64,000 bases of DNA from an uncultured Acidobacteriaceae bacterium (GCA_964245715.1 CAXTNM010000017.1:2911-66910), one strand, 5' to 3'. Counted from the stretch's first letter, positions 5,953 through 55,217 are shown. Program-made: numbers and translations. Notes: generated by a model from the sequence alone, not told the origin.

Positions 5953-6458
5953 TGGGGCTCTCCATCTTCTACGGTTTCGGCGAGAACAGCATCGCGTGTT
6001 GCGTCGCGACGCGCGATCAATCTCTGCTGGAGCGCGGGGTCGGTCGTGGCGAGCATGGCGACTGCCAGGAGGGCGGCGTTGGCCGCTCCCGAAGCTCCGA
6101 TGGCGAAGGTTCCGACCGGCACGCCCTTCGGCATCTGCACGATGGAGAGCAGCGCGTCAAAACCCTGGAGCGCTGTTGCGGCGACCGGCACGCCCAGCAC
6201 CGGCACGGCGGTCAGCGCGGCGATCATGCCCGGCAGGTGCGCGGCTCCGCCGGCTCCGGCGATGATACAGCGGAGGCCGCGATCGACGGCAGACCTGGCG
6301 TAGTCGAACATGAGGTCGGGCGTGCGGTGTGCGCTGACGACGCGAACTTCATGCGGGATGTCGAACTCGCGGAGGATCTCGACGGCGGCTTTCATTACCG
6401 AGTAGTCGCTGCGGCTGCCCATGACGACGCCGATAAGAGGATTGGGTACGGCCTGCAT
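5949..6458 (-). CDS. purE: N5-carboxyaminoimidazole ribonucleotide mutase
   Basis: VMGSRSD, VSAHRTP, AGAGGAAHLPG, SIVQMPKGVPV motifs. Confidence 0.97.
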   Translation of the reverse strand: MQAVPNPLIGVVMGSRSDYSVMKAAVEILREFDIPHEVRVVSAHRTPDLMFDYARSAVDRGLRCIIAGAGGAAHLPGMIAALTAVPVLGVPVAATALQGFDALLSIVQMPKGVPVGTFAIGASGAANAALLAVAMLATTDPALQQRLIARRDATRDAVLAETVEDGEPQ

Positions 6459-6495
6459 AAGGAATGATTATAAAGTGCGCCCTCACGCCGGGCCG

Positions 6496-6640
6496 GCGGT
6501 ACTGCGTGTGCCGGGAGCTTCGCGTGGTCCTCCCGCTGGTCGGCACAGACATGAGTGCCGACCGACGGGAGGAGAACGCGAAACCCAGGATGGCACGAAG
6601 TGCTCGCTGCCCGCGCTGAGGGCGCACTCAGGCATGTTTG
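6496..6640. repeat. REP-like composite palindromic repeat, copy 1
   Basis: GCGGTACTGCG (6496-6506) and GGTCCTCCCGCTGGTCG (6526-6542), forming a hairpin with GTGCCGACCGACGGGAGG; same motifs recur near 10680 and 12635. Confidence 0.7.
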
Positions 6641-6852
6641 CCGGTCAGATAGCCAATCACAACGTGCAACACGGCAAGCAGCGGGCCCAGTGCCGCGACG
6701 ACTCCCTTCATGCGCTGCAGCGCGCGTTCGGTTGAGACCAGGCGGCCTTCCAGTTCGTGCAGCCGGCCTGGCTGGCCAATCCCGAGGATCTGTTCCATCT
6801 GGGCTTTTAGAACTTGCAGGTCGCCCAGGACCTGCGCTTCATAATCTGTCAT
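6628..6852 (-). CDS. Small holin/XhlA-like membrane protein
   Basis: 74 aa; coiled-coil N-terminus and one C-terminal transmembrane segment (VVAALGPLLAVLHVVIGYL); GAAAGGGA RBS; last gene of the cluster. Confidence 0.5.
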   Translation of the reverse strand: MTDYEAQVLGDLQVLKAQMEQILGIGQPGRLHELEGRLVSTERALQRMKGVVAALGPLLAVLHVVIGYLTGKHA

Positions 6853-6870
6853 ATCTCGATTCCCTTTCGG

Positions 6871-9258
6871 CTAGCTGCCTGGTTGATGGTTGAGGATGGC
6901 GGCCGAGAAGCGTGAATAGAGCGGCGGCGTGGAGGCGTCGTACATGCATAGGAAGAAGGTCTCGTCGGCGGCGGCGAGGGGAATCGAGAATCCGCGTACA
7001 GGACTGCGCAGGACCAGATCGCCACTCGCACTCGGAGCAGTGAGCGAGCCGAAGCCGCCGTCTCGTCGTCGCACCTCGAAGCCTCCACCCGGGGGCGGTG
7101 CAATGCCCGCGTCGACCGTCAGCGAGGTTGAAGAGGCAGGAGTGATCGTGATCTGCGAAAGATTGGCGAGGACATGAACGGGGAGCGTAGCGCCTGTAAC
7201 AGAGTCGATGAGATCGAGCGCCGCGACCGGGAGGAAGGCGTCGGCTTCGATGGTCTCGGAGAGCTTGAGCCCGAGGCCTTCGGCCCAGTCGTTGGCGAAC
7301 GTGATCCGGTAGGTGAGGGCTTCGGGGCTCGCGTCCTGCTGCGAGACGGTGACGCGGCGCACGATGCAGTTCAGCGTCTGGTTCTGGCTAAGGACGATGA
7401 GCAGATCACCGGGCCAGATGTCCGGGCTGGCAGGGTTCACTGCCTCATACGTACCGCTGAGAGCGGCCGCACGATTCGACGCAAAGCTGAGAATAGCCTG
7501 CGCGGCGGCCTCGCAATCCTGACTCGAGCGGGCGGGCGGTTGGACAACGTGGCCAAGCCAGCGGGAGGTTCCTGCAACGCCGTTCGTCTCTCCGGCTGCC
7601 TCGACGGCCAGGCTTGCGGGGTCGGCGACCCGTGCGATGGCGCGCCCGCGTCCGCGGTAGGAGACCGCGATGGTCTCGCCCGCGGCGGGAACGCGTCCGG
7701 CAAAGAAGGTGATGCGGCCCGTGGTGGAGGAGGTGACGGAACAGTCCGCGCCATCGGAAGCCTTGCCGACCAGGCGCGTCCACTGCGTGCCGGTAGAGCT
7801 TGTGCTGCGAACCCAGCAGGTGCCGCTGCGAGTCAGCGTGAGCGATCCAACGGACCCGGAGAGTGTGAGGCTGTTGATCGGAACGAACGTGACCTGCGCG
7901 GGCGAAAGGGCGATTGAGCCGTCGTAGAGCACGGTGATCGGCGTGTTGGAGGCGGAGGCCTGGTCGCGCGCCTCGAAGACGAGAGAGACCGGCGCCGGGT
8001 TGGTGCCGGAGCCGAACTGGGCCACTGTGGAGCCACGGGGCGGCGATTCGACCAGGGCGTAGAACGATTGCTGGACGCGCAGAAGCTCTGGGCAATGAAG
8101 CCGCAGGCGGAAGGTGTACACGTGGGCGGGAGCGAGGGTAAGCGACGTGCCTACCTCGACGCCGTTGATCATTGGGGTGGCAAGCGTCTGGCCGGCGCTC
8201 TGGCGAATGTTGAAGCCCGCGAAGCAGTTGGCCTGCCGGGTGCTACCGTTGTAAAGCCCGCCGAGGATGCCGGCGGAACCGGCCGTGAAGGTGACGGCAT
8301 CGAATTCGAGGACGAGCGAGCCGCCCACTTCCAGTGGATCCCAAGCGGCGACGGTGGTCTGGCCGTCGAGACCGTTGCCGCCGCTGACCGTGAGGCCCGC
8401 TGACGTGAGGGACAGGTGCCCGCCGGGATCGTTGGTCTGCCACTGCTGCAGGTTGAGGGTGGATTCGGTGAAGGGTTCGGCGATCAGCGTCGCGTGTGCG
8501 GCGTCAGGTGCGTCCGGCTCGCCGAGCAGACCGAAGACTTCGGTGGTGCCGTCGCCGGTGAAGAGCTCCGTCCAGTAGGCGCTCGGTTCGAGAGCGCCGG
8601 TGACGGTGATGTCGTTCGCGAGCTCTTTGAGCGAGGTTGTCCTCAACGCGCCGACGGCGAGCGATCCGTCGCCATCCGAAAACGTGTGTTGTACGAGCGC
8701 CAGACCGGCGAGTCCGATCGTCCCGTTGATCGCGCGATAGCTGCTGTAGGTGGAGTTCGCGAGAAGGCCGGCGTTGCTCGACCAGTTACTTCCCTTCTCC
8801 GGCTCAAAGATGCCGGTGAGGTTGGTGGCGGCGCCCGTAGTCGTCAGGACATTGGGCGCGAGGCGCTGCACGAGCGACGTCATCAGGTTGGAGGTCGACT
8901 CGCCGAGTCCGGTGCCGACGGTCGATCCCCAGGACTGCTTATCAAGCAGCCACTCGTCTGAGACGGCGGAGAGGGCGAGGCGGTAGACCGGCCCGGGACT
9001 CGCCTCGCCGGCGTAGAGTGCCGTGGGTTCGGTAGTCAGATAACCCGTGAATAGCGTGATGCCGGCGGTGGTGCTGGTCACAACGACGCGACCGCGGCGC
9101 ACCGGCGTCGGCAGGATGGAGGCCTCAAGGCAGAGCATACCCCGGAGGGCACTCGGCGCGTTCAACGTCCGGTTGATCTCGAAGGGTTCCGAGTTGTCGA
9201 TGGCGGCGGTGTAATCGATCGGTCCGAGCCCGTCGAGATTGTCGATCGTTAGCTGCAT
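6871..9258 (-). CDS. Putative tail hub / host-specificity protein (795 aa)
   Basis: Beta-rich, Thr/Gly/Ser-rich protein starting MQLTIDNLDG at 9258, overlapping the portal stop. The C-terminal IVRRVTV..YRITF resembles tail-hub beta barrels. The track ORF's extension to 9642 overlaps portal and is rejected. Confidence 0.55.
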   Translation of the reverse strand: MQLTIDNLDGLGPIDYTAAIDNSEPFEINRTLNAPSALRGMLCLEASILPTPVRRGRVVVTSTTAGITLFTGYLTTEPTALYAGEASPGPVYRLALSAVSDEWLLDKQSWGSTVGTGLGESTSNLMTSLVQRLAPNVLTTTGAATNLTGIFEPEKGSNWSSNAGLLANSTYSSYRAINGTIGLAGLALVQHTFSDGDGSLAVGALRTTSLKELANDITVTGALEPSAYWTELFTGDGTTEVFGLLGEPDAPDAAHATLIAEPFTESTLNLQQWQTNDPGGHLSLTSAGLTVSGGNGLDGQTTVAAWDPLEVGGSLVLEFDAVTFTAGSAGILGGLYNGSTRQANCFAGFNIRQSAGQTLATPMINGVEVGTSLTLAPAHVYTFRLRLHCPELLRVQQSFYALVESPPRGSTVAQFGSGTNPAPVSLVFEARDQASASNTPITVLYDGSIALSPAQVTFVPINSLTLSGSVGSLTLTRSGTCWVRSTSSTGTQWTRLVGKASDGADCSVTSSTTGRITFFAGRVPAAGETIAVSYRGRGRAIARVADPASLAVEAAGETNGVAGTSRWLGHVVQPPARSSQDCEAAAQAILSFASNRAAALSGTYEAVNPASPDIWPGDLLIVLSQNQTLNCIVRRVTVSQQDASPEALTYRITFANDWAEGLGLKLSETIEADAFLPVAALDLIDSVTGATLPVHVLANLSQITITPASSTSLTVDAGIAPPPGGGFEVRRRDGGFGSLTAPSASGDLVLRSPVRGFSIPLAAADETFFLCMYDASTPPLYSRFSAAILNHQPGS

Positions 9259-10511
9259 ACGCTGGGCTCCTTGGATTCCTCGAAGCCGCTGCCAGAAATC
9301 ATGCTTGAGGCTGCTGGTGGCAGGCCGCGCATGGCTCTGACTTCCGCGACCGAGAGCACGCCGGCGTTGAGCAGCTGGATCTGGATGTTGAGTTCGCCCT
9401 GCTCGTCGCGCGATTCGAGATCGTTGAAGAGGAACTCGAACTCGGGCCAGCCGATGCATTTGCCAAAGAGATCGCGGGTATTGTGTTCGGCGAGCAGCTT
9501 GGCGACCGGCACGATCGCGGACTGGAAGGCCTCGTCGGCGAACTCGCCGGCGGTCGACTGGTTGACGTCGGCCTCCAGGCCAAGCAGCATCGGCGGCAGG
9601 TCGAACGCGTTGCCGATCATGCGGATCAGGAACTCCTGCCATGCAATGCGAAGATCCGCGTCCGTGCCGCCGGCGAAGCGCAGCACTTCGGGCTTCTTTT
9701 CGCAGCTGAGCACGGGCACGCGCCCTGTGCCCTCGATCTCATCCTGCCACCAGCGGATCAGGCGATCATGCTGCTCGGGCGTGGTCTCGTCGAGCCAAAG
9801 CGCATATTGCACGACTGAATTCGAGGCCAGGCGTCCGGCGTAGCGATTAGCGCTGAGGAGCTGACTGATGGACTCGTACGCGACTTCAAGCCGGCCGAGC
9901 CCGAAGGGAGTATAGGTGCGCGGGTTCAGCCGGACGTAGATCAGTTCGGAATCGAGCAGAGGCGTGATCGCTTCGGTGCCCACGCGGCCGGTCTGGAAGC
10001 CATAGCGCGGAGTCTCGGCCTCGCCGTTCCAGCGCGGATCGACCTGGATGGCGGCGCCATCGATCGCCCAGAGTTCGAATGGCTTCGAGGCGTCGCCGGT
10101 CGGCTTCATCTCGACCGCGCCGAAGCCGCCGACGAGCGTGTCTTCGAGCACCTGTTCGAAGAGCGTGCGGAAGCTATCGGAGGTGTTAGGTTGTTCCAGC
10201 GCGGCGCGGAGTGCATCGAGCTTCACCTGGACGTCCTTGATGCCGGCCGGATCGAAACCGCGGCGGACGCGGACCTGCCAGTCCATCGAGGCGATGCGGT
10301 CTTTGACCAGGTTGATCGCGCGCCGGGCGACCGGGGTCTCGGCAAACTTGCGCAGGCTCGCGGCCGAGGGTTTGGAAAGCGCCTGATGGCCCGAGTTTGG
10401 CGCCTGGTACGGACTCAGCACAGCAGGTAACGCCTGCGTCTTCCGGGTGGCGGGTGTGGCCTGGGCTCTGAGAGCGGCCCAGGCATTGTGGATGCGGGTG
10501 GTGAGTGGCAT
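9249..10511 (-). CDS. Phage portal protein (HK97-like, 420 aa)
   Basis: PNTSDSFRTLFEQVLEDTLVGG, PFGLGRLE, IGNAFDLPPMLLG and GVLSVAEVRAMRGLPP portal motifs; GGAGG RBS before MPLTT at 10511. Confidence 0.9.
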   Translation of the reverse strand: MPLTTRIHNAWAALRAQATPATRKTQALPAVLSPYQAPNSGHQALSKPSAASLRKFAETPVARRAINLVKDRIASMDWQVRVRRGFDPAGIKDVQVKLDALRAALEQPNTSDSFRTLFEQVLEDTLVGGFGAVEMKPTGDASKPFELWAIDGAAIQVDPRWNGEAETPRYGFQTGRVGTEAITPLLDSELIYVRLNPRTYTPFGLGRLEVAYESISQLLSANRYAGRLASNSVVQYALWLDETTPEQHDRLIRWWQDEIEGTGRVPVLSCEKKPEVLRFAGGTDADLRIAWQEFLIRMIGNAFDLPPMLLGLEADVNQSTAGEFADEAFQSAIVPVAKLLAEHNTRDLFGKCIGWPEFEFLFNDLESRDEQGELNIQIQLLNAGVLSVAEVRAMRGLPPAASSMISGSGFEESKEPSVCS

Positions 10512-10529
10512 AAGGGTGGACCTCCGTGC

Positions 10530-10563
10530 AAAGGTGAAGGGCACAGCCTGTGGCTGTGCCCTT
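10530..10563 (-). terminator. Stem-loop in the portal leader
   Basis: Minus strand AAGGGCACAGCC-aca-GGCTGTGCCCTT (12-bp stem), then cacctttgc and the RBS. Confidence 0.5.
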
Positions 10564-10586
10564 TTGGAAAGAAATCTAAGAGATTG

Positions 10587-10725
10587 GTCCTGCCGGACGG
10601 GCGCCCTTGTCGCGAGCGCCACTTCGTGGGTGTTGGGCTTCGCGATCTCCTTCCAGCGATGGACACGGGCGTGGCGCCGACCCGCGGGAGGACCCTGACG
10701 ACGCTTCCGGGGTACGCAGTACCGC
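10587..10725. repeat. REP-like composite repeat, copy 2
   Basis: GTCCTGCCGGACGGGCGC (10587-10604) is identical to 12569-12586. Inverted GGTCCTCCCGCgGGTCG at 10678-10694 and inverted GCGGTACTGCG at 10715-10725. Confidence 0.75.
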
Positions 10726-10741
10726 GGTCAGGGAGCCTGAG

Positions 10742-11611
10742 TTACAGCCCTAAATCCTGACGTACGATCGCAGCCGAGCGGACGAGATCGTTCATGGTGA
10801 GGACGTTGATTCCCTGCTGCTCCATCGTCTCTTTGCCGAAGTCGTAGCGTTCCCAGAGTTCGCCTTCGGCTGCAGCGATGGCATTGCGGGGTTCAACGAT
10901 GGCCGTGAGTTCGAGTGAGGCATGTTCGACCCGGGTCACGCCGGCGTGAAGTTGAGGTGCCATGAAGGCAAGCACCTTGGCGCTTTCGAGATCGCCCTCG
11001 AGCGAGACCGCCTGGAAGACGCGCAGGGCGTTACCGACCTTTGGGTCTTTGCGGTAGCCGCAGTCGAGCTTGAGCGGGTCGCCCTTGCGGGTGTAGCGCT
11101 CTGCGGGAATGCGTTTGTTCATGAGCTGCCAGACGCCGGCGCGCTCGAAGTGGGTGCGCATGGCGGCCTGGATGGCGGGTCGCCCGGTGCTCTTGCGGCT
11201 TTGTTTCAGCGGCGCAGCCTGCGCCATCGGTTCGACGTAGAGACGCATCAGCTGTTCGAGCTCGGTGGTGAGGTTTTCAGCGAGCGCGGCGCGCGGTTCG
11301 GTCATCTGCACGGAATTCGAAAGTGACGCCTCGAGCACGGCCAGCAGCGAGGCAGGTTCGCGCTCGGTGGGACCAGCCGTCAGACGCCGGGAGATCTCCT
11401 GCTCGAGATCTTCGAGCAGCGAGACATCGGCAGAGGCGTCCATGCAGCGGACGCGCGTCCAGTCGCGGGTAAAGCGGACCTGGATGGATGGGCTCGCGTG
11501 GGGGGTCTCGTGCGCCTCGCGCAGGAGCACGCCGATGTTGACGAACTCGCCCTTGACGATGTCCGGAACATAGCGCACCAGGAAGAACTCGCATGGAACT
11601 CGGGGCTGCAT
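10742..11611 (-). CDS. DUF3037 domain protein (usual partner of HipA-like kinases)
   Basis: FFLVRYVPDIVKGEFVNIGVLL N-terminal signature; AAAGGAG RBS before MQPRVP at 11611. Confidence 0.85.
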   Translation of the reverse strand: MQPRVPCEFFLVRYVPDIVKGEFVNIGVLLREAHETPHASPSIQVRFTRDWTRVRCMDASADVSLLEDLEQEISRRLTAGPTEREPASLLAVLEASLSNSVQMTEPRAALAENLTTELEQLMRLYVEPMAQAAPLKQSRKSTGRPAIQAAMRTHFERAGVWQLMNKRIPAERYTRKGDPLKLDCGYRKDPKVGNALRVFQAVSLEGDLESAKVLAFMAPQLHAGVTRVEHASLELTAIVEPRNAIAAAEGELWERYDFGKETMEQQGINVLTMNDLVRSAAIVRQDLGL

Positions 11612-11679
11612 GGAGCTCTCCTTTCGTGTATTGACTGCTTCATCGACCAGAGTACGCCTGCGCGTCGGCGCGGCGCGGT

Positions 11680-12547
11680 TTACATGACGAACTTCGGGGT
11701 AACTTCGAGCACCTGAAATGATGACGGCACCGTGACGAGCGCAGGTTTGTTCCAATGCGGGAATGGTTCGCGGGTAGAGTTCTTGAAGGCTGTGATGAGG
11801 TCCCTTACTTTGCTGCGGCGATCGAGCAGCTGTTCCATCAATCGCTCGATGGTGGTGAGATCGCCCCCGTACCAGACGGGCGGGACGGCCTCGGCGATGG
11901 CCCAGAGCTGGTTGGCGTCCAGGGTCTCGAGGCGGCTGAGCCAGGGTTCAAACGACTGCCACCCCTGGATGCGGGCGTAGACGCTCGAGCGCGGGTAGAC
12001 GCCCCGCAGCGGAGAATCGGGGAAATCCCAGTCGCCGGCGTTGAAACAGAAGCCCTGGTCGATGAAGACTGCGCGATACTTGCGTTCGCGTTGTCTGCGT
12101 TCGAAGACCGCTTGCCGGCCGTTGCAGTTGCCTGTCCATTTGTCGAGCGCGAGCATGCCGGCGAATTCTGCGTGGTTGCGCAGGTCGTCGAGTTGCGGCT
12201 CGGGCAGGAAGTCGACGACCTGTCCGGGCATGAGGCCGCCCAACGAAGGCGCTGCCGAAGTGCAGACCGCCCGTGCAGCGCTCCTGGCGTCCTCTTCCGA
12301 GATCGACGAACAAATCTGCCGTGTGGGTGGCGAGCCAGTCGGTGACTTCGATCACGTCGGACGCCGGGACGCTCAGGCCGAGCGCCTCGGCCAGTCGCGT
12401 GACGATAAGTTCGTTGGCGAGCACGCGCAGGTGCTGCGGATTGTTCTGGAACTTGACGACCCAAAGCCGCGAGTCGGCGCCGAGCATGAGCTGGCTCTGG
12501 GCGCCGCCGCGCATCCTTCGGATTGCCTGGACGGCGAGTACGGCCAT
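11680..12547 (-). pseudogene. HipA-like (HipA_2) Ser/Thr kinase interrupted by a one-base frameshift
   Basis: N-half (MAVLAVQAIRRMRGGAQ, VVKFQNN, LANE) and C-half (LDKWTGNCNGRQ, FIDQG) lie in different frames. They join at GTTGGGCGGC (~12237-12245), where removing one G restores FVGGLMPG; 868 nt = 289 codons + 1. Could be a sequencing error. Confidence 0.8.
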
Positions 12548-12568
12548 GTAGACAACCATACAGACTCT

Positions 12569-12675
12569 GTCCTGCCGGACGGGCGCGCCCTGACGCGAGG
12601 CCGGCGGTACCGCGGGCGGAGGAAGCTTCGCCAGGGTCCTCCCGCTGGTCGTCACGAAGCCCCCGCAGCACGCGA
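12569..12675. repeat. REP-like composite repeat, copy 3
   Basis: GTCCTGCCGGACGGGCGC (12569-12586), GCGGTACCGCG (12604-12614) and GGTCCTCCCGCTGGTCG (12635-12651). Confidence 0.75.
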
Positions 12676-12685
12676 TGAGGGCGCA

Positions 12686-14152
12686 TCATCGCTTCCCCTC
12701 GTTTCTGACGGCATGTGCGACGGCCATGGCCATCAGGCAGTCGTCGTGTGCGCCGGGCGCGGCGCCCGAGCCGCCGTTGTCGAACGAGACGAAGCTGCGG
12801 CACTCGGTGAGCAGGCGCCGCGAGTAGAAGAGCTCCGCATCGTCTTCAAGCAGGGCGCCGATGCGGCTGATCATGGCGGGTTTGTTGCCCGCCGTGGTGA
12901 GCCATCCGGCGACACCCTGCCGTGCGTACACGCGCTCATAGCGCTCGGTGGCGTCGAGATACGCGAGCACCGCGGCGCCATGGTTGTTGCGCTCGACGGC
13001 GATGATCGCCTGGTTGTACTCGCGTGCAAGCTGCGCGCCGATGCGTGCGAGTTCGAGCGGCGCGAGGCGTTCGCGGAGTTCAGCGCACTGCAGCCCGGTT
13101 TCGCGGTCGAGGACCTGAATCGCGGCATAGTCGCCGTCGGGTCCGCCGCCTGCGGTATCGACGCCCAGCAGGTACTCGCGCAGCGGCTGGGGTGAAAACC
13201 AGATCTGCAGCGCGCCGCCGCGCCGGGTGGCGAGCGGCTCCCGCAGATGAGCGAGGCGACGTTCGATTGGCTCCGGTGGAAAGCAGCAGTCGCCCGATGC
13301 CCGGAAGCAGCTCTCGGGATCTTCGGCGAACTCCTGCGCGCGCAGGCCGCGGAAGTTGCGTTCCAGCTCGCGGCGAAAGCCAATCTGCTCCGGTGTGAGA
13401 GTGTGCCGGAAGGCGAGTTCAAGTTCCTGTGGCGTGAGCTCGCGTGGCGCCGCGCTGGCATACGCAGGTTCGAGCCACCAGGGATAAAAGTGCTGAATCA
13501 GGCCGGTCTCCGCGGCGTGCGTCCACTCTTCGAAGAAGGCGCCGTAAGCTCCGCTGGGCGTGCTTTCGAGCGTCATCTCGCCGCCGGGAGCGAGTGCGGC
13601 GCGCAGACCGGCCAGGGTGGCCTGCGCGTCGCCAGGCCAGCGGGCTACCTCGCTGAGATGAAGATTCTGGATCGTAAGTCCGCGGCCGGCGTTATCCTCG
13701 CCTGCACTGATGACGCGGAACTCGCTGTCGAGTGCGCGAAAGACCATGCGGTTGGCGCTTGATCGCGAGAGTTTAAGAGCATCCTTTCGTAGATGATCGG
13801 GCAGGTTGTGCCAAAGCCGCTGCACGATGGCAAAGAGACCTTCGGAGGCCTCGCGGGTGTGCGCGCAGAGCACCGTGAGTGAGCCCGGGATGGTAATGGT
13901 CTTGAGGAAAAAACGCGAGGCGATCCAGGTGGTGATGCCCATCTGCCTGGCCTTGAGGACGATGTTTTTCTGGCTGCGATTCTCTTCGAAGCGGAGCTGG
14001 ACGGGATTGGCTTTGAGGTGGTGGGTCTGGCCGTTGCGGTCGCGGATCAGCAGCAGGTCGCGAGCCATCCAGACAGCGGGAGGCTCTCCTGCGTCGTTAG
14101 GCTCGTTGGCTTTAAGCAGCTTGCCGTACCGCAGCAGATCGGATGCAGTCAT
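12686..14152 (-). CDS. Terminase large subunit
   Basis: Walker A variant LKARQMGITT, Walker B LHLSE, motif III ESTP, and RNase H-like nuclease residues GVDTAGG and HDDCLMA. Confidence 0.92.
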   Translation of the reverse strand: MTASDLLRYGKLLKANEPNDAGEPPAVWMARDLLLIRDRNGQTHHLKANPVQLRFEENRSQKNIVLKARQMGITTWIASRFFLKTITIPGSLTVLCAHTREASEGLFAIVQRLWHNLPDHLRKDALKLSRSSANRMVFRALDSEFRVISAGEDNAGRGLTIQNLHLSEVARWPGDAQATLAGLRAALAPGGEMTLESTPSGAYGAFFEEWTHAAETGLIQHFYPWWLEPAYASAAPRELTPQELELAFRHTLTPEQIGFRRELERNFRGLRAQEFAEDPESCFRASGDCCFPPEPIERRLAHLREPLATRRGGALQIWFSPQPLREYLLGVDTAGGGPDGDYAAIQVLDRETGLQCAELRERLAPLELARIGAQLAREYNQAIIAVERNNHGAAVLAYLDATERYERVYARQGVAGWLTTAGNKPAMISRIGALLEDDAELFYSRRLLTECRSFVSFDNGGSGAAPGAHDDCLMAMAVAHAVRNEGKR

Positions 14153-14185
14153 GCGCGGCTCCGTGTTTGGGTGGGAGGGTGGTGG

Positions 14186-14222
14186 AAGGCAAAGGCGGAA
14201 CGCCGAGGAGGCGTTCCGCCTT
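14186..14222 (-). terminator. Stem-loop plus TTTGCCTT tail upstream of terminase
   Basis: Minus strand GGCGGAACGCC-tcctc-GGCGTTCCGCC-TTTGCCTT; perfect 11-bp stem. Confidence 0.6.
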
Positions 14223-14246
14223 GCGTCGGATCAGGCCTGAGGGGTT

Positions 14247-19316: not shown

Positions 19317-19356
19317 AGAACTCCCTTCAAGGGTGATTGAGCGTAAAGGCACGGAA

Positions 19357-20373
19357 CTAGACGGCGCGCATGGGGCCTGGCAGATAGCTGCGGAAGCAGA
19401 CGATCTGTTCGCCATCATTCGCATCCCTGACGGGCAGGGCACGGAAGTTGCCGGCAAGACGGATTCGTTCCAGGCTGCCGAATTTGGAAGCAGTGAGGCT
19501 TTCGGCTTTCTCAGACGGACCCTGCATGGCCTGCAGGCGCGGATAGTGGAAGACAATGCGGTCGCCCTGCTCGCCATCGATGACGAAGAGCGCGGACCAC
19601 TCCTGGAAGAAGCTGCCGCCTTCGCGGTCGCAAAAGCCGGCGACATGGCTTACCTGCATCCCGCTAATGGGCGTGCCGGCAAGCAGCGGCGCACCGAGCG
19701 TGAGCAGGTTGCCTCCGCTTCCGGTGCTGATGGCGACGACGCGCCCCACGTTGAGCGTGACGCGGCGAATGTAGTCGATGTCGGAGCCGATCGCTGCGGC
19801 TGATTTGACGTAGCCTCCGCTGACGCCGCTGCCGACAAAGGCGGTCTGGCCGGTGTAGTCGATGTCGACCGCGACGACCTCGCCGACGGTGAAGCCGGAC
19901 GCCGCAGCTCCAACATCGAGCGTGGTTGCGGTCGAGCCGGAGGCGACGGGCACGGCAGGTAAAGCCGCGCCGCCGCTCCCGTTGGCGGCTGCTCCTGTCT
20001 GGGTTCTCAGGACGTTCATCTGCTGGGCGCCGGCGGTAAGCGCAAGCGGCAGTTTGCCCCAGGATTCAAACTCGAGCGAGACGTTGGCCTCGATAGTCGT
20101 GCGGGCTTGCGTAAGTGGAACGCTGGGAGCGCCACTGGCAAGCGCGACAGTCTTCGTGCCCGAGGTGCGGATGAAGTTCGAGCACCAGCCGAGGTCGACC
20201 CAGGGTGCTGGTGGCGCGGCCGGGTTGAAGGCAGCGATGCCGGCTGGATCCCACAGGGTGGGCTGCGAGATGACGCGGTTGACCGGCGCGAAGAAGGCAC
20301 GTACGCGACGGGCTACAGGAGAGACGGCCGGAGAAATGGCCGGCGTCCCCGGTACAAGCAGCTCACTGGCCAT
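19357..20373 (-). CDS. Putative tail tube / major tail protein (338 aa)
   Basis: [21 protein letters not shown] and IVFHYPRLQ beta-strand patterns typical of siphovirus tube proteins; follows the terminator-like gene with an 11-nt overlap. Confidence 0.6.
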
Positions 20374-20884
20374 AGCCGAAGACCTCCAGTTGCGCGATGC
20401 GTTCGAGCCTCTCACCGCGCGCTACGACCGGTACAAAGGCCACTTCGCTCCAGAAGATGCTGGAGGCGAGTACTGTTGTGGTCGAAGCACCGCCGCCTGC
20501 GATCTCGGCGATGGTGTCTGCGGTCGCACGCTGCGGCCAGATCGTGAGAGCGCTGGTGAGCTCTGCATCCAGCGCGGCAAGCGTGCGGCCGCGATCCATT
20601 GCCGCGTTGCTCGTGGTGCCGTCGGACGCATAGCGGATCTCGCAGCCGAGGGTCAGCAAAGGGCCTGCGCTTTCCGCATCGACCTTGAGCGTGGTCCAGC
20701 GAATGCAGAAGGCCTCTGCGGGCGAGATACCATCCACTGCCGTGCCGGGCAGCTCGTTCTCGGGCACGAGAACGCCCGGCCTCAGGACACCGCGGACGAC
20801 CATCGTTCGCGCGGGATTGAGCGCAGCGAGGCGGCCCTGGAGCGTGGCATAGAAGGAATCTTTGATGGCTTGGACATTTAGCAT
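20363..20884 (-). CDS. Putative tail terminator / neck protein
   Basis: 173 aa; position between head-closure and tube genes; AGAAAGGA RBS. Confidence 0.45.
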   Translation of the reverse strand: MLNVQAIKDSFYATLQGRLAALNPARTMVVRGVLRPGVLVPENELPGTAVDGISPAEAFCIRWTTLKVDAESAGPLLTLGCEIRYASDGTTSNAAMDRGRTLAALDAELTSALTIWPQRATADTIAEIAGGGASTTTVLASSIFWSEVAFVPVVARGERLERIAQLEVFGYGQ

Positions 20885-20931
20885 TCCAATCCTTTCTGGA
20901 GCAAGGGTGTGGGCTCCGGTGATGGGTGCTC

Positions 20932-21351
20932 CTAAGTGAAGTTGCTGATCGCGCCGCGCAGGCCAAGGCGGTAGAGGTATGGCGAGCCGAAGGCCTCGGC
21001 GGTCGCGATCCAGGTGATGCCGTAGAGCGCGCCGTCAATCAGCACGCCGTCGGCCTGGGCGAAGAGAACCTCTCCCCCGTTGAAGCCCAGAGTGCCGGCA
21101 GCACGGCTGACGGCCGACGCGGAGAGCAGCAGCTCGTAGGAAGCTTCGTCCGGCTTATCGGCCGTGCCGGTCCTGGCGCGCACGCGGCGAAAGAGCGCGG
21201 GGCCGAGCGCGAGATCCTGAAACTGCGGAGTGGCGAGGCCGAGCTGTTCGCCGAGGTCGCCATTGATCGCCGATGCGGGCAAGCGCATCAGCACCATGCG
21301 GCCGCCGACCCCGCGCAGGAGCACGTCGGACATTTGCTGATGCGGCGTCAT
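20932..21351 (-). CDS. Putative head-closure protein (139 aa)
   Basis: MTPHQQ start overlaps the adaptor stop (ATGA); C-terminal VLIDGALYGITWI..YRLGLR resembles gp16-type barrels. Confidence 0.45.
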   Translation of the reverse strand: MTPHQQMSDVLLRGVGGRMVLMRLPASAINGDLGEQLGLATPQFQDLALGPALFRRVRARTGTADKPDEASYELLLSASAVSRAAGTLGFNGGEVLFAQADGVLIDGALYGITWIATAEAFGSPYLYRLGLRGAISNFT

Positions 21352-21983
21352 CCGAGACGCTCCGCCCGATACGGCTGCAGCATCAGCTCGACGCCTGGAT
21401 CGATCAGCTGATTCGAGAAGTACTGCATCTCGAGGGTGTCGAGCTTGCTGCTCTTCACGTTGAGCGCGGGGATTGCCTGGGCGTTCTTGACGATCTGTGC
21501 GCAGGCAGCCATGACCTGCGTCGGCATGTTTACAAAACCCGCAGTGTAGGTCAGCTCGACCTCGTTGTAGCCGAGCCCAGCTCCGAGAAACGTAGAAGGC
21601 AGTGTGACCTCGCGCGGTCCGGCATAGACATCGGCCGTCGACACATCGAGGTTCGTCCACGTGCCCGGCAGCCCGAATGCTGTAGCGATTTGCTGGAGGA
21701 AGAGGCCGTTGTGGCTTGACTCGAGGGCGACGTCCTCGCCGCGGCGCGGTCGTGCGTAACGCACGCGTCCGCTGAGGAGCGCGCCTAGGAGCAGCGGGCC
21801 GTAGCTGAGGCGGAAGGTCTGCGAACCGGCGATCAGGCGAACGCGCTCGGTGTACTGGGTGGCGAAGAGCGAAGGCCGGCGGCACCAGGCTTCCATCAGG
21901 GCCGAAGCCATGGTGACGAGCTCGTCGGCGGTCTCCGGCTGCAAGCCGTAGGCTTCGTACGATGTGGGCGAGAGGTAACCCAT
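21348..21983 (-). CDS. Putative head-tail adaptor (gp6/gp15-like)
   Basis: ASALMEAWCRRPSL, ELTYTAGF..MPTQVMAAC and LMLQPYR motifs of head-tail connectors; directly after the capsid gene. Confidence 0.65.
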   Translation of the reverse strand: MGYLSPTSYEAYGLQPETADELVTMASALMEAWCRRPSLFATQYTERVRLIAGSQTFRLSYGPLLLGALLSGRVRYARPRRGEDVALESSHNGLFLQQIATAFGLPGTWTNLDVSTADVYAGPREVTLPSTFLGAGLGYNEVELTYTAGFVNMPTQVMAACAQIVKNAQAIPALNVKSSKLDTLEMQYFSNQLIDPGVELMLQPYRAERLG

Positions 21984-22011
21984 CGTGGTCTCCTTTCAAG
22001 AGCGAGGGATC

Positions 22012-22047
22012 AAGGCAAAGGGTGAACAGGCGTTGACCTGTTCACCC
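22012..22047 (-). terminator. Stem-loop plus TTTGCCTT tail downstream of the capsid gene
   Basis: Minus strand GGGTGAACAGG-tcaacg-CCTGTTCACCC-TTTGCCTT; perfect 11-bp stem. Confidence 0.65.
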
Positions 22048-22072
22048 CCGTTTTGGTTGCGAGGCCAAGGGC

Positions 22073-23044
22073 CTACCGGTCGACGAGGACCTGATAGTGG
22101 GCGTAGTTGGCGCCCTTCACGACAACGCCGCCGAACTTGACCACCACATACTGCGAGGCGAGGTTGCCGGGGACGCCGAGCTGGAAGACGCGCGGGTTCG
22201 GGTCCGAGAGCCAGTGATATTCGATCAGGTCTTCGGTGACGATGTACGCGGGCAGGACGGCCGAGCCTGAGCCCGGCGTACCCGTGTAGGGCAAGGTCCA
22301 CTCGGGGATCAGCGGGATGTCGCCGGCCTGCGTCGAAAGGGTCTTCACCGTAAGGCCGCCCTCGATGCTCCGCGTGGTCAGGACCACGTTGTACTCCGTC
22401 TTCATTTCGCGGTCGATCAGGTCGAGCAGCACCGGGTTCGCATAGATCGCGGTCGGACGCACGCCGAAAGAGGTGTTCGAGAGCATCTGCGCGATGGTCG
22501 ATTTGAGACCGTCGACGATGCTTTGCGTGGAGCCGATGGTGGTGGTGTTGCCGCCGGCGACGATCTGCCCGATGGCGCCAAAATACTGCGCGGAGGTTGG
22601 CGTCGAGAAGCTGGTATCAGAGCCGTTCCAGAGGGCGATGTCATGCGTGCGGAGAACGCCATCGACCGTGTCCGCGAGATCCTTCGCCTGCAGGTAAGCA
22701 AACTGCGACTGCTGCCTGCCGAGCTCAAGATCGAAGAGGTTGTAGTTGATCTGTGAGACCAGTGCTTTCAGCGGCACGGCACGCTCGACGCGGGTGGGGC
22801 TGACGATAGGCGCAATGATGTTGCGGGGATCGACGAAGGTACTTGCGGCCGCTGCGACCGGGATCGCCGTCTCCTCGAAGTAGCGCGAAGGATGGCCGGT
22901 TGCGGGGATCTGCTTCATGCGCTGCCCGAAGACGCCGCGGCGACGTACGAGATCGAGGATCTCAGTCTGGTAGACGGGAACTTCAATGGCTCCGGGTCCG
23001 ATGTAGTCTGCGGTCGCGTGGATGTCCGTAAATTTTGCGTTCAT
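22073..23044 (-). CDS. Major capsid protein (HK97 fold, 323 aa)
   Basis: Size, position after protease and scaffold, and HK97-like layout (TEILDLVRRRG; DLADTVDGVLRTHDIALWNG; PTAIYANP; YVVVKFGGVVV); AAAGGGA RBS before MNAKF. Confidence 0.8.
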   Translation of the reverse strand: MNAKFTDIHATADYIGPGAIEVPVYQTEILDLVRRRGVFGQRMKQIPATGHPSRYFEETAIPVAAAASTFVDPRNIIAPIVSPTRVERAVPLKALVSQINYNLFDLELGRQQSQFAYLQAKDLADTVDGVLRTHDIALWNGSDTSFSTPTSAQYFGAIGQIVAGGNTTTIGSTQSIVDGLKSTIAQMLSNTSFGVRPTAIYANPVLLDLIDREMKTEYNVVLTTRSIEGGLTVKTLSTQAGDIPLIPEWTLPYTGTPGSGSAVLPAYIVTEDLIEYHWLSDPNPRVFQLGVPGNLASQYVVVKFGGVVVKGANYAHYQVLVDR

Positions 23045-23059
23045 GTTTGTCCCTTTCAA

Positions 23060-23096
23060 AAGGCAAAGGGACGCAAGGCTGATGGGCCTGCGTCCC
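23060..23096 (-). promoter_or_regulatory. Stem-loop plus TTTGCCTT in the capsid leader, overlapping an alternative RBS-sequestering hairpin
   Basis: GGGACGCAGGC...GCCTTGCGTCCC-TTTGCCTT; alternative stem GTCCCTTT/AAAGGGAC (23049-23072) covers the RBS. Confidence 0.5.
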
Positions 23097-23169
23097 TGGT
23101 TGGATTGAGTTGTGGCTGGGAGTTGCTCGACGAGCGAGTGATCCGCCGTGGTTGACGAAGAGCGACGCT

Positions 23170-23577
23170 CTAGGCGAGCAGACCGGTACGAAGCATCTCC
23201 GACTTGACGGCGATGCGCTGCTCGATCGAGAGGCTGCGAAGCGAGGAGTCGAGCGCCGAGGCTTCAAGCGCAACGCCATCCCGTGAGGCAAGTGCGGACG
23301 CGCCCGCGGACGCTGTCTTCCGCGTGGACGAATGAGTCGTTTGGACGCGAGCGGCTTCTGCGCGCAGCGAAACAATGGTTGCCGCAGCCTCGGCGAGCTG
23401 CTGTTCTAGTTGCTGTTCGCGCGGGCTCACGAGCGAAGCGTTCAGCTCAACACCGGCGAAGCGTTCAGCAGCCTGTTCGAGCAGGCTGGCCGCGGCGTTC
23501 AGACGCTCGAGCGCGCAGCCGAGATCGTCGCTGGCATGAGCATTGAGGTCAGTAGGTACTTGCATTTCCATCTCCAT
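23170..23577 (-). CDS. Putative capsid scaffolding protein
   Basis: 135 aa, Ala/Glu/Gln-rich coiled coil, directly upstream of the capsid gene; AAGGAG RBS. Confidence 0.5.
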   Translation of the reverse strand: MEMEMQVPTDLNAHASDDLGCALERLNAAASLLEQAAERFAGVELNASLVSPREQQLEQQLAEAAATIVSLRAEAARVQTTHSSTRKTASAGASALASRDGVALEASALDSSLRSLSIEQRIAVKSEMLRTGLLA

Positions 23578-23593
23578 GAAGACATCTCCTTAA

Positions 23594-23986
23594 CTAGTTG
23601 CTGGGAACGGCTTGTATCGCGGGCGCAGGCTGCGCGTTGAGGATGGCGACGACAGCGTTAACCAGGCTGGTAATGTACTCCGGGCTTGCATTTATGCCCG
23701 CATGGCTCAGCAGGGTTGTGACCGCTCCCTGCGAGATGGTGAGAACCTCCGAGAGCTTCTGCGCTCCCGTGCCGCTTTGCACGCCGGCCGCGGCAAACTT
23801 CTGCTCGACGGCGAGCACAGAGTTCTGGATCAGGGTGGTTGCATCCTCGGCGGCGGACATCACCGGGGCGGAGGCCGGGAACAACAGGCCGACGAGGCTT
23901 TCGACGGGAACAGCATAGGTCAGGGCAAACTTGAGGCCTTTGGCAAAGTCCTTGCCGATGGCTTGTAACACGCCAAGAAACGACAT
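23594..23986 (-). CDS. Putative LL-H-family holin-like protein
   Basis: Amphipathic/hydrophobic N-terminus, then VLAVEQ...GAQKLSEV...LSHAGI...ITSLVNAVV, resembling the LL-H pattern AVEQ..G..K...L...G...I..LI.AAV. Confidence 0.4.
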   Translation of the reverse strand: MSFLGVLQAIGKDFAKGLKFALTYAVPVESLVGLLFPASAPVMSAAEDATTLIQNSVLAVEQKFAAAGVQSGTGAQKLSEVLTISQGAVTTLLSHAGINASPEYITSLVNAVVAILNAQPAPAIQAVPSN

Positions 23987-24020
23987 TGTTTCTCCTTGGA
24001 TTGCGAGTGCGGTTGTGTGG

Positions 24021-24656
24021 CTAGTAGAAGCTGGCTTCGAGGCGGCTGACGGGCTTCTTGACGCCGCGGCGAACGCGGAAGCTGGTACCGCGATAGGCTG
24101 CCTTATCGCGCAGCAGGATGGCCGCGCCGGTGAAGGTCGCCTTGGTGAGCTTCCAGATGGATGCGCGCATGTCGGCGACGTGGGCGTCTGCGAGCTCGTA
24201 GCTCATCCCCATGCCACTTGCGGAGCCGGCGCCGAGTGCGGGCTCCATCTCGGGAAAGTCGCGGGCGTAGAGGTAGCCTGCCACCAGCAGCTTCTTATCT
24301 TCGAGCGCTGCGGAGGTGATGATGCCGCACTTCTGGCGTGCGTCGTGCCCGTCCCAGCCGGCCTTGTAGTCAACGGCCATGCCGAGCAAGCTGGGGATGG
24401 CGGCTTCGGCGGCAGCGTGGGTCAGCACGACGCGATGTCCGCGCGCGCCTGAGGGAGCGCGATCGCTGGGCGTGTCGACGAGTGTGAGGCAGCCTTCAAA
24501 GGGGAGCCGGTTGGGATGTCCTGCGACCTCCGGGAAATCGACGGCCATGGCACTCATGGCAAGTGTATGAGCTCGCCGTGCAGAGTTGAGCAAAGACGCC
24601 GGGAGTCGGCAGGTGGATGGGCTTGTGGGCCGGCTCATGGGTTGGTTCCACTCCAT
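24021..24656 (-). CDS. Putative prohead (capsid maturation) protease
   Basis: His in WDGHD and Ser in GMGMSYE resemble the HK97-type protease dyad; first gene of the structural operon; AAAGGAG RBS before MEWNQ at 24656. Confidence 0.55.
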   Translation of the reverse strand: MEWNQPMSRPTSPSTCRLPASLLNSARRAHTLAMSAMAVDFPEVAGHPNRLPFEGCLTLVDTPSDRAPSGARGHRVVLTHAAAEAAIPSLLGMAVDYKAGWDGHDARQKCGIITSAALEDKKLLVAGYLYARDFPEMEPALGAGSASGMGMSYELADAHVADMRASIWKLTKATFTGAAILLRDKAAYRGTSFRVRRGVKKPVSRLEASFY

Positions 24657-24756
24657 GCAAAGGCTCCTTTCGCCGTAGTGAACGGTCGGTGAGACCAGGC
24701 TTGCGCCTGGTCTACGGATTGGGTATGTGGAAGGGGTGCGGGCAATAAGCAGAGAC

Positions 24757-24796
24757 AAAAAACGGGAGCGGCACCGTGTGTGGCGCCTGCCCCCGT
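24757..24796 (-). terminator. Rho-independent terminator between the regulator pair and the structural operon
   Basis: Minus strand ACGGGGGCAGGCGCC-acacac-GGTGCCGCTCCCGT-TTTTT; ~14-bp stem with one bulge and a U tail. Confidence 0.7.
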
Positions 24797-24939
24797 CTCT
24801 CACTTTTACTTATATTAATAGAATAGCAGTTCGAACCGGGTAGATAGGACAATTATTTTTTCATTGTAAGTTGTTCATTCGTAACGGCATAGCGGAAGGA
24901 TGGGGAGGATGACCCCTTGACAAGGTTTTCCACAGGTGC

Positions 24940-25491
24940 TTAGTCCTTGAGGGTATTCTCCATTTGCAGTTCAAGCAGTTTTCCCTTGATCAGCATGGAA
25001 GTGAGTTGATCGAGAGCGTCCGCATACCGTCGCGATACTGTCTTGTGGCTGATCCCGAGCATGGCCGCTGTCTCACTGTGGCTGTAGCCCTGAAGCGCGA
25101 CGCGACGCACCAGGTGCTGGAGCCCAGGTGTGAGACGCCCAAGGCAGTTGCCGACATCATGAACGAAGATCAAGGCATCGTCAAAACCCCGCACCGTGCA
25201 GTGACTGACTTTGCCACGGAAGAGCTCACGACCCATCAGCGAAGGAACGCGACCGGCCTCAAGCGAAAGCCTGAGGTAACGCTGCAGCATGGCTTCGGTG
25301 TACTTGCGATAGAAGGCCAGTTCCGGCTTTGGTGCCGGCGAGGCGGCGAGCGGCTGAGCCTCTGCCGATACGAGTCGAAGGCAGTGCGGACCCTTGCGGC
25401 CGGGCGGCGTGGTGGAGAGGCGCTGACCGGAGGCAAGACTGGCGTCGGCGGTTGCCCAGACGCGCGGGAGAATGACCAGGGCCGCGCTCAT
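24940..25491 (-). CDS. Sigma-70 region-4-like HTH regulator (phage late-activator type)
   Basis: C-terminal LQHLVRRVALQGYSHSETAAMLGISHKTVSRRYADA matches a region-4 helix-turn-helix; no recognisable region 2; ATGA overlap with the upstream gene. Confidence 0.7.
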   Translation of the reverse strand: MSAALVILPRVWATADASLASGQRLSTTPPGRKGPHCLRLVSAEAQPLAASPAPKPELAFYRKYTEAMLQRYLRLSLEAGRVPSLMGRELFRGKVSHCTVRGFDDALIFVHDVGNCLGRLTPGLQHLVRRVALQGYSHSETAAMLGISHKTVSRRYADALDQLTSMLIKGKLLELQMENTLKD

Positions 25492-25697
25492 CGGGCACCT
25501 CCGACGGTTTGGGTGGAGCGGGTAAGAAGGATGGGTCGGTGCCTGGCCGTACGCGCATTACGCCGCAGTCCGCGAGCTGCGGGAAATTCGGCAAGCAGGG
25601 GGGCGCAGCGACGGCAGTAGACTTTTTCCGCAATCGTGCGGAGCCAGAGAGCTCCGCATCCTTCACAAACTTTGAGATCGACAGTCAAGCTAATCAT
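25488..25697 (-). CDS. Small zinc-ribbon protein (69 aa)
   Basis: CEGC-x13-CRRC, basic tail, GGAG RBS before MISLT, coupled to the HTH gene. Confidence 0.65.
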   Translation of the reverse strand: MISLTVDLKVCEGCGALWLRTIAEKVYCRRCAPLLAEFPAARGLRRNARTARHRPILLTRSTQTVGGAR

Positions 25698-25988
25698 GAT
25701 GTCTCCAAGGCAAGGTTCCCCCCGGCGAGCTCCAGGTGAATCCGGGTGTGGAAAGGGCTCGCTCAGGCTGCTGTGAGGTGCGGGACTGCGAAGCTCAGGA
25801 AGGTCCTTCCATCCTGAGTGCTGCACAGCGGCACCACTTTTCTATACGGTTCTCGGCGTGGATCCTCGTACCCATGCGCCATCTCTCTCGTGCTTCGAGC
25901 ATGCTACGTGCCAGACCTTTAGGGGACGTGCCTTCCTGCTGGTCCCATCGTGCTGGCTGGTAAACAATCTCATCGGGAAAGTTTCTAA

Positions 25989-26017
25989 GTGATATCGCCG
26001 CTGCGGGAGCATGTCAA
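25989..26017 (-). promoter_or_regulatory. Putative sigma70 promoter of the regulator pair
   Basis: TTGACA (26017-26012), 17-nt spacer, TATCAC (25994-25989), in an AT-rich spacer. Confidence 0.55.
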
Positions 26018-46099: not shown

Positions 46100-46134
46100 A
46101 AGAGACACGCGGATTACAGCAGGCGCTGGAGACT

Positions 46135-51284: not shown

Positions 51285-51319
51285 GGCTGGGATCTGGAAT
51301 CAGTAAACAAGGATCGGCA

Positions 51320-52135: not shown

Positions 52136-52197
52136 CTGCAACAAGAAACACTCAACAGCAGGTTTGACCAAATTGATTGCATGAAGGCCTGAAACGT

Positions 52198-55215: not shown

Positions 55216-55217
55216 CG

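Follow-up and report, generated by a model that had tools for sequence, protein, structure and literature searches.

The window, that is, the whole stretch of 64,000 nucleotides that was analysed, corresponds to positions 2911-66910 of contig 17 (70.8 kb) in the assembly of an uncultured Acidobacteriaceae bacterium (GCA_964245715.1; 5.14 Mb in 164 contigs), and all coordinates are counted from its first letter. It carries a block of co-oriented minus-strand genes (6628-25826; to 26017 if a promoter-like site is included; about 19 kb), which encodes phage-type head, packaging and tail proteins. A preliminary description had read this block as a candidate for an apparently domesticated system resembling a gene transfer agent (GTA), located between purE and core genes. 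These flanks were found as described: at the low-coordinate end purE (5949-6458; PF00731, 1e-60), purK, a hypothetical gene, the gene of an E2 acyltransferase and lipB, and at the high-coordinate end genes for an alpha/beta hydrolase, serine hydroxymethyltransferase (glyA), a DUF4126 protein, a rhodanese and a MacB-type permease. The flanking housekeeping genes were seen in relatives too, not only at the cluster of the window.

Gene models were refined using frame plots of the GC content at third codon positions (GC3) together with start codons preceded by a Shine-Dalgarno sequence, and the cluster proteins were scanned against Pfam, PHROGs, NCBIfam and PDB profiles. The synteny sample consisted of the 80 best loci of 513 relatives from a scan of species-representative genomes; these loci were mostly from Acidobacteriaceae (Granulicella, Edaphobacter, Tunturiibacter, KBS 89), the other labels being two 'Rhodanobacteraceae' and one 'Lichenicola'. 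The features are listed in the order of transcription, with protein lengths in amino acids (aa).

25989-26017, minus strand: sigma-70-type promoter-like site (TTGACA, 17 nucleotides, TATCAC), 5' of the regulator pair, by direct reading of the sequence
25488-25697, minus strand: zinc (Zn)-ribbon-like protein, 69 aa, CxxC...CxxC; ATG at 25697, the longest open reading frame (ORF) reaching 25826
24940-25491, minus strand: regulator with sigma-70 region 4 only, 183 aa (PF04545, 3e-8; PF08281, 4e-7; PHROG 1740, 7e-9)
24657-24939, minus strand: AT-rich spacer, comprising a terminator-like hairpin, a T-run and, behind them, the ribosome-binding site for the first structural gene
24021-24656, minus strand: head-module protein, 211 aa, median identity 77%, no family match
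23594-23986, minus strand: 130-aa protein, sub-threshold match to holin_LLH (PF09682, E 0.003), no strong transmembrane segment
23170-23577, minus strand: 135-aa protein at a conserved position 5' of the capsid gene; putative scaffold by position
22073-23044, minus strand: major capsid protein with HK97 fold (AlphaFold and Foldseek), 323 aa, median identity 85%
21348-21983, minus strand: conserved protein, 211 aa, presumed head-tail connector position
20932-21351, minus strand: conserved protein, 139 aa, presumed neck position
20363-20884, minus strand: conserved protein, 173 aa, presumed neck or tube position
19357-20373, minus strand: conserved protein, 338 aa, median identity 62%, no PDB or PHROG match
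14247-19316, minus strand: giant fibre-like protein, 1689 aa, with collagen repeats, LamG lectin and SGNH/GDSL esterase domains
12686-14152, minus strand: large terminase, 488 aa (PHROG 2, 8e-25; Terminase_6C PF17289, 2e-9)
11680-12559, minus strand: HipA_2-like kinase gene, frameshifted near 12240; copies of relatives intact, 305-364 aa (PADLOC PDC-M66A, 1e-7)
10742-11611, minus strand: DUF3037 protein, partner of the HipA-like protein (PF11236, 8e-23; PADLOC PDC-M66B, 8e-10)
9249-10511, minus strand: portal, 420 aa (PF04860, 5e-47; PHROG 2662, 5e-35)
6871-9258, minus strand: Tal-like tail hub or tail tip, 795 aa, with a lectin-like middle domain
6849-7103, minus strand: ORF, probably not a gene
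6628-6852, minus strand: last gene, 74 aa, one predicted C-terminal transmembrane helix, in 73 of the 80 loci

Seventeen credible co-oriented genes were thus retained, where the preliminary description had counted 18. The ORF 6849-7103 was dropped as probably not a gene, because it is of low complexity, occurs in 6 of the 80 loci and has a ratio of nonsynonymous to synonymous substitution rates (dN/dS) of about 1; of the two proteins that had been called holin-like, only the conserved 74-aa protein with its single helix is therefore kept as a gene, holin being a putative label for it. The structural ORFs had been described as intact, and the one correction concerns a non-structural gene, the frameshifted HipA-like one. 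Long N-termini of the ORFs 6871-9642, 20932-21999 and 24021-24803 were rejected as alternative-frame shadows of neighbouring genes, with stops in relatives, and the same applied to ORF 21996-22301, which was 'conserved' by tblastn and yet also contains stops in relatives. Such alternative-frame ORFs over highly conserved genes (9249-9642, 21996-22301 and others) score as conserved by tblastn and constitute a gene-calling trap in a GC-rich genome.

The Pfam and PHROG scans named only the portal, the large terminase, the DUF3037 protein, the giant collagen/LamG/SGNH protein and the sigma-70 region-4 protein; none of ten cluster proteins was named by NCBIfam, and for the hub and the 338-aa protein neither PDB profile searches nor per-member PHROG scans of their alignments yielded a match. 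Of the head-tail genes claimed beforehand, portal, large terminase, HK97-fold capsid protein, tail hub and fibre-like protein were confirmed by families or folds, whereas the labels protease, scaffold, neck and tail tube found no support in Pfam, PHROGs, NCBIfam or PDB profiles. For the six remaining small and medium-sized proteins, which have no detectable relatives outside this element, such labels follow from gene position. By this reasoning the 211-aa protein 24021-24656 may occupy a protease or scaffold position, as it follows the portal in the ancestral gene order (see below), and the 338-aa protein, directly before the hub in that order, a tube or distal-tail position. The 130-aa gene was found in 10 of 10 same-genus genomes, all of the rearranged type, and in none of 8 genomes with the ancestral order.

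The 323-aa protein is taken as the major capsid protein on the grounds of its predicted fold. The AlphaFold model was of moderate confidence (predicted local distance difference test, pLDDT, 59 overall and 76-91 over most of residues 160-270; predicted template modelling score, pTM, 0.59), and Foldseek retrieved with it almost only HK97-fold phage capsid proteins (FCWL1, Bridgette, Cozz, SU10, T1; E 1e-6 to 1e-3). It has about 4300 homologues; among the matches listed, all those with a named source belong to Acidobacteria/Terriglobales, all are annotated 'hypothetical' and none carries a Pfam domain. The confident model of the 795-aa protein (pLDDT 86, pTM 0.83) identifies it as a Tal-like tail hub: in the PDB, Foldseek matched its N-terminal ~235 residues to Mu gp44, the MuSo2 43-kDa tail protein, VgrG, a monocin tip and the tail tips of T5, DT57C and 80alpha, and in BFVD the protein matched tail proteins, minor ones included, from siphoviruses and myoviruses (best E 2e-17). 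With a hub of this kind, the ancestor was a long-tailed phage. An origin from a podovirus, suggested by the best GenBank terminase matches among 933W-like phages, was dropped, the hub fold being of the Tal/gp27 type of long-tailed phages. In the terminase, K67-x4-G72-x-T74 and the acidic nuclease residues D332, D470 and D471 are invariant across 12 species.

At the head of the cluster, the small regulator pair of the preliminary description was recovered as the CxxC...CxxC protein and the sigma-70 region-4 protein. The stop of the Zn-ribbon gene overlaps the start of the sigma-region-4 gene (ATGA), and the two genes adjoin family-wide; orthologues of the Zn-ribbon protein (38-61% identity) stand at the same cluster end in both gene arrangements. 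Between the sigma-like and the first structural gene, 8 of 10 same-genus genomes and one genome of another genus carry a 102-aa gene (containing ...ALPEITERFVEEAKKGSIQHAKVL...; for example L026:4427-4735, minus strand), for which the roles of a small terminase and of a second regulator are conceivable. Alignment of the spacer behind the regulator gene among relatives, in search of a shared promoter, gave no clear motif. The spacer 23044-23170 before the capsid gene ends with ...CCCTTTGCCTT, directly 5' of the ribosome-binding site; compare TTTGCCTT, which had been noted as the shared tail of hairpins at the first reading of the sequence. A repetitive extragenic palindromic (REP)-like element of ~75 nucleotides fills three spacers (6474-6546, 10667-10725, 12585-12662), as had been described, and has nine more matches on eight other contigs of the genome.

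Two components are unusual. The giant protein consists of a Sec-type signal peptide (19230-19316), a conserved 1000-aa N-part and a variable C-part; possibly it leaves the cytoplasm and has its site of action at the cell surface or beyond the cell. The HipA-like/DUF3037 pair, placed between terminase and portal, is kept in both gene arrangements and matches the PADLOC defence candidate PDC-M66 (A/B).

The distribution of the cluster was examined using the terminase, which is single-copy in the source genome and occurs in 20 of 24 species of the same genus, with 57-67% identity over full-length matches. A terminase profile found it in 137 of 201 genomes of the family (132 of 193 high-quality ones), representing 91 of 116 genera and nearly always one copy, so that similar clusters in other Acidobacteriaceae, which had been mentioned at first, are abundantly confirmed. 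Cultured soil strains carrying intact copies include Tunturiibacter gelidiferens X5P2 (L058), T. lichenicola MP8S11 (L086), Granulicella sp. S190 (L073), Edaphobacter sp. HDX4 (L068) and Acidobacteriaceae KBS 89 (L064). In one genome, the terminase match (G016:C6:1109199-1110701) consists of two pieces within one open frame, which may reflect a divergent linker or an insertion that keeps the frame. Outside the family, about 365 genomes of the same phylum gave four weak terminase matches, and the class sample contained the capsid protein once, with 62% identity, in a different family. The 80 loci show the gene order of the window, and wherever a locus reaches far enough, purE-purK-(E2-lipB) follows the last gene. 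Order and chromosomal site are therefore conserved family-wide; a patchy distribution at variable sites, the outcome that was to speak against domestication, was not seen.

A second order was found in seven other genera, one genome of another family and one IMG/VR contig (L120): Zn-ribbon, sigma, giant protein, terminase, HipA-like, DUF3037, portal, 211, 135, capsid, 211, 139, 173, 338, hub, 74, continuing into (purE-purK) E2-lipB. Relative to this ancestral order, two internal blocks (giant protein to portal and 211 to 338) are swapped in the genus of the window, while the ends are unchanged and the 130-aa gene is added. The comparison indicates that the order of the window is derived and arose by clade-specific rearrangement in situ; the position of terminase and portal behind the tail genes is due to this block swap, which is itself a mark of vertical descent. 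As another cause of the odd order, a phage genome that was simply circularly permuted was considered and dropped, because the two ends are identical in both arrangements.

Genomes lacking the terminase retain remnants at the same site, as seen at four loci. G819 has kept purE, a remnant of the 74-aa gene, the sigma-region-4 gene despite deletion of the structural genes, the Zn-ribbon gene and the hydrolase gene; G468 has HipA-like, DUF3037, portal, a frameshifted hub, the 74-aa gene and purE; G236 has a remnant of the 74-aa gene beside purE. A remnant of this last gene thus survives in deleted loci. In G809 the HipA-like and DUF3037 genes alone stand beside purE (L220; 10742-12559 in the window), which hints at a selectable function of the pair itself.

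Selection was assessed by pairwise Nei-Gojobori dN/dS from codon alignments of up to 81 loci. The medians were 0.08 for the capsid protein, 0.13 for the 211-aa head protein, 0.16 for the portal, 0.17 for the C-part of the HipA-like protein, 0.18 for the 74-aa protein, 0.20 for the terminase, 0.23 for the 338-aa protein, 0.28 for the hub, 0.29 for both the 135-aa protein and the N-part of the giant protein, and 0.52 for the C-part of the latter; dS is near saturation, so these values are upper bounds and the true ratios are probably lower, which limits their use as measurements. Overall, the cluster values of 0.08-0.3 lie well below 1 and are comparable to those of the flanking housekeeping genes (E2 0.08, purK 0.125, purE 0.14). 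Protein distances of six concatenated cluster genes correlated with those of purK+purE (r = 0.83, reached in 0 of 2000 Mantel permutations), the cluster proteins evolving ~1.5x faster, and the maximum-likelihood trees of both sets had 19 of 34 splits in common, against 0.14 expected with shuffled labels; the host markers used here are flanking genes linked to the cluster, a feature that weakens the test. With conserved synteny, congruent descent and low dN/dS, each computational test proposed in the preliminary description favoured domestication.

The composition of the cluster had been called host-like, and this holds when its codon usage is compared with that of core genes: GC3 of the six large cluster genes tested lies at the 86-98th percentile among ~2570 long ORFs, equals that of the adjacent purE, purK and E2 genes, and does so across 54 relatives as well. 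It does not hold against the genome average, as the cluster has 64.0% GC vs 58.8% for the genome (top of 184 windows of 19.2 kb) and a tetranucleotide distance in the top 2.5% of windows. RcGTA-type clusters, named after the GTA of Rhodobacter capsulatus, also show elevated GC (Kogay et al., PMC7360931), a parallel to the elevated GC and GC3 seen here that is suggestive only. Elsewhere in the window, GC falls to 52-57% over ~15 kb (45000-60000), across co-oriented plus-strand ORFs (46096-61803) that may form a separate island.

Functions for mobility were sought in the same region. The window contains no tRNA, no direct repeats bracket the cluster, and none of the 24 tyrosine recombinase matches of the genome lies on the 70.8-kb contig, in line with the absence of integrase, att duplication and tRNA noted beforehand. 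Variable DNA beside the regulator end in two relatives contained host-type genes and no phage genes.

Measured against the functional definition of Lang et al., the cluster shows two features of a GTA: its structural and packaging genes are phage-derived and come with no module for integration, replication or lysogeny, and it is inherited vertically at a stable locus under purifying selection. As a GTA it would also produce particles, which would carry random host DNA in pieces too short for the whole cluster and deliver it to recipient cells. Homology to the head-tail genes of RcGTA was not seen, as the Pfam scans returned none of the RcGTA-associated tail families. Neither GTA_TIM nor Phage-tail_3, which we take to be such families, was among the Pfam matches of the cluster. 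It lacks the integrase with att sites, repressor, replication genes and strain-variable presence of an ordinary temperate prophage. It also differs from a capsid-forming satellite (of the capsid-forming phage-inducible chromosomal island, cf-PICI, type) in having no integrase, replication or primase genes, a vertical pattern and its own tail hub, and from tail-like bacteriocins and contractile injection systems in the presence and conservation of terminase, portal and capsid genes, with no sheath recognised.

The cluster resembles the RcGTA-type clusters of Alphaproteobacteria: both are compact (<20 kb), encode head, packaging and tail functions of phages but neither integration nor replication, are vertically inherited over a deep clade with frequent partial losses, are under purifying selection and have GC above the host average (PMC7360931). 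The present cluster belongs to another phylum and shows no specific homology, having only a generic HK97-type portal (PF04860), Terminase_6C and a capsid protein outside Pfam. It further differs in that neither small terminase nor tape measure nor tube can be recognised, that a HipA-like/DUF3037 pair is embedded, that the fibre-like protein has a signal peptide and that the regulator is encoded inside the cluster. The RcGTA regulator GafA contains a sigma-region-4-like domain and in this resembles the regulator found here. BaGTA, VSH-1, Dd1 and VTA are separate domestications of tailed phages whose particles carry host DNA (review PMC11841831); no homology to them is expected, and for these, packaging or transfer is experimentally proven, whereas for the present cluster both are predicted.

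The element itself is not new to the literature. 'Prophage Cluster 153' (Eichorst et al. 2018, PMC5900883) includes Acidobacteriaceae KBS 89 scaffold00005, 60-90 kb, which is locus L064 among the relatives, and the proviruses that Demina et al. (2025, PMC11924767) placed in 'group (ii)' of Terriglobales include the Granulicella metagenome-assembled genome OY843766, which is locus L035; both are the same element as the cluster. There the regions are treated as likely active prophages or widespread proviruses, and fixed site, vertical inheritance, purifying selection and missing mobility genes are not presented in the passages concerned as signs of domestication. The statement that no GTA of this phylum had been characterised thus fits the literature searched, in which no paper proposing an acidobacterial GTA was found, but has to be amended in that the element was already published under these provirus names.

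Relatives among phages are distant. Among GenBank phages, the terminases nearest to that of the cluster (from 933W-type Stx phages and others) share at most 28% identity and the capsid protein has no match, so that near-identical phage homologues, a second outcome that was to count against domestication, were not seen. In IMG/VR, two contigs only exceed 50% terminase identity. One (L119, IMGVR_UViG_3300030020_000070; 58%) carries the terminase beside lambda-J-like central tail fibre and minor tail genes but nothing else of the cluster; there is thus a related phage lineage, and L119 is probably a genuine siphovirus related to the packaging module of the ancestor. The other (L120, IMGVR_UViG_3300050138_000681) has the ancestral order with two DUF3037 copies and different large secreted-type proteins before the terminase, and may be a chromosomal copy from another Terriglobales lineage that is filed as viral. 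The 854-aa ORF before its terminase has an N-terminus that looks signal-peptide-like by eye.

Taken together, the cluster is very probably a vertically inherited, selected and domesticated element, and long residence is supported by the host REP elements in its spacers, the clade-specific block swap and the in-place deletions. In our view it is no prophage; it is a presumed maker of particles that belongs to the host and is of independent origin, and it stands as a good candidate for a GTA of a new kind. That it represents a domesticated phage-derived particle cluster which likely packages host DNA, with gene transfer as the leading guess, appears reasonably probable; to the stricter claim of a true GTA, one by which random host DNA is packaged and delivered, we give somewhat less than even weight.

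Several observations weigh against this interpretation. The cluster is known from its genes, from which particles, packaged DNA and transfer are all predicted. By family scans, none of the cluster genes was recognisable as encoding a small terminase, a tape measure, a tube, a protease or an endolysin, and the tape-measure family PF10145 had no match in the whole genome; it follows that the particle may lack parts or may depend on genes unlinked to the cluster. At 24657-24939, and in the whole source genome, the 102-aa gene of relatives is missing, and the HipA-like gene has a frameshift, which may be genuine or may stem from the assembly. A Sec-type signal peptide, present in every orthologue of the giant protein inspected, is unexpected for a virion part assembled in the cytoplasm. 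Finally, ~30% of the genomes of the family show complete or partial loss of the cluster and in ~10 the terminase is split over two frames, so the element is dispensable and sometimes decaying.

Some of these points suit a domesticated particle with a role other than transfer, an explanation we consider unlikely though clearly the strongest competitor. Such a particle could be a PBSX-like killing or lysis device that packages host DNA, could release DNA or other contents for the benefit of biofilm or kin, or could be a structure mainly supporting the HipA-like/DUF3037 defence candidate and the secreted giant protein. All evidence for domestication applies to it equally, and it would accommodate the tail without recognisable tape measure and tube, the signal peptide of the giant protein, and the PDC-M66 match of a pair that is the sole part left beside purE in G809. 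The sigma-like positive regulator, too, has a counterpart in PBSX of Bacillus subtilis, a defective prophage that is fixed and non-transmissible, packages host DNA and has its late operon driven by the sigma-like Xpf. PBSX resembles the cluster as a chromosomally fixed, phage-derived particle cluster with a sigma-like activator; it differs in having a contractile sheath, tube, tape measure, lysis genes and an Xre repressor, none of which is recognisable here, and in being conserved over a much narrower host range. Against a role of this kind, the intact state and strong conservation of the genes for terminase, portal and capsid speak for selection on DNA packaging itself, and no sheath or contractile killing apparatus and no bacteriocin-type or lysis enzyme was recognised in the cluster.

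An ordinary defective prophage that decays slowly and has no host function would agree with the HipA-like frameshift and the missing small gene in the source genome, with the deletions and split terminases of some lineages, and with the designation as prophages or proviruses in the published passages. It is nevertheless largely refuted and very improbable: neutral decay cannot hold at least 15 genes intact at dN/dS 0.08-0.3 across 91 genera, constraint on the capsid protein equals that on the E2 dehydrogenase subunit, and site and order are conserved family-wide. Scarcely any weight is left for an active temperate phage family or helper-dependent capsid-forming satellite that inserts site-specifically at purE/E2-lipB and so mimics vertical inheritance, because the related terminases of L119 and L120, the latter with ancestral order and other fibre genes, are outweighed by the lack of integrase, excisionase, repressor, replication gene, att repeat and tRNA here and in the relatives examined, by one copy per genome, by divergence that tracks host divergence, by a block swap confined to one host genus and by remnants at the same site in cluster-less genomes.

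Returning to domestication with particle production, the following course of events is proposed. A long-tailed HK97-type phage would have become fixed beside E2-lipB/purE-purK before the family radiated, would have lost its integration, replication and lysogeny functions and would have been inherited vertically since. In the present-day host, the Zn-ribbon and sigma-region-4 regulators, expressed from their own promoter, would activate the operon of structural genes; procapsids would be built from capsid protein, portal and those proteins that occupy head positions, the large terminase would fill them with DNA, and a minimal neck together with the Tal-like hub would complete the particle. The packaged DNA would most likely be host DNA, because there is no element-specific replication and no recognisable small terminase. 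A small terminase without a specific DNA-binding domain belongs to the traits of GTAs (PMC11841831). The particles would then serve the host population, with gene transfer as the leading guess. On a more tentative level, the cluster could represent a family-wide GTA of independent origin and a new viriform family, characterised by a minimal tail free of a tape measure, its own sigma-like switch, an embedded kinase pair of defence-like type, and a giant collagen-lectin-esterase protein that is secreted and may act outside the cell that produces it.

The GTAs known from experiments belong to few lineages, none of them within Acidobacteriota in the literature searched. Acidobacteriaceae dominate in acidic soils and peat, and a host-owned DNA-packaging particle in most species of this family would, if true, bear on horizontal gene flow in soil. 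It would also bear on the reading of soil viromes and of 'provirus' counts, the element being currently counted as prophage or provirus, and it may possibly be the source of a 'core virome' contig reported from Sphagnum. Peat viromes contain much non-viral DNA, for which GTAs have been raised as one possible source (Trubl et al. 2018, PMC6172770), and a family-wide GTA could account for part of the bacterial DNA in the particle fractions of such viromes. With the ancestral order, the block-swapped order and graded deletions at one site, the family offers a natural domestication series, and since several cultured, non-pathogenic strains have intact copies, the question whether these bacteria produce DNA-packaging particles is directly testable.

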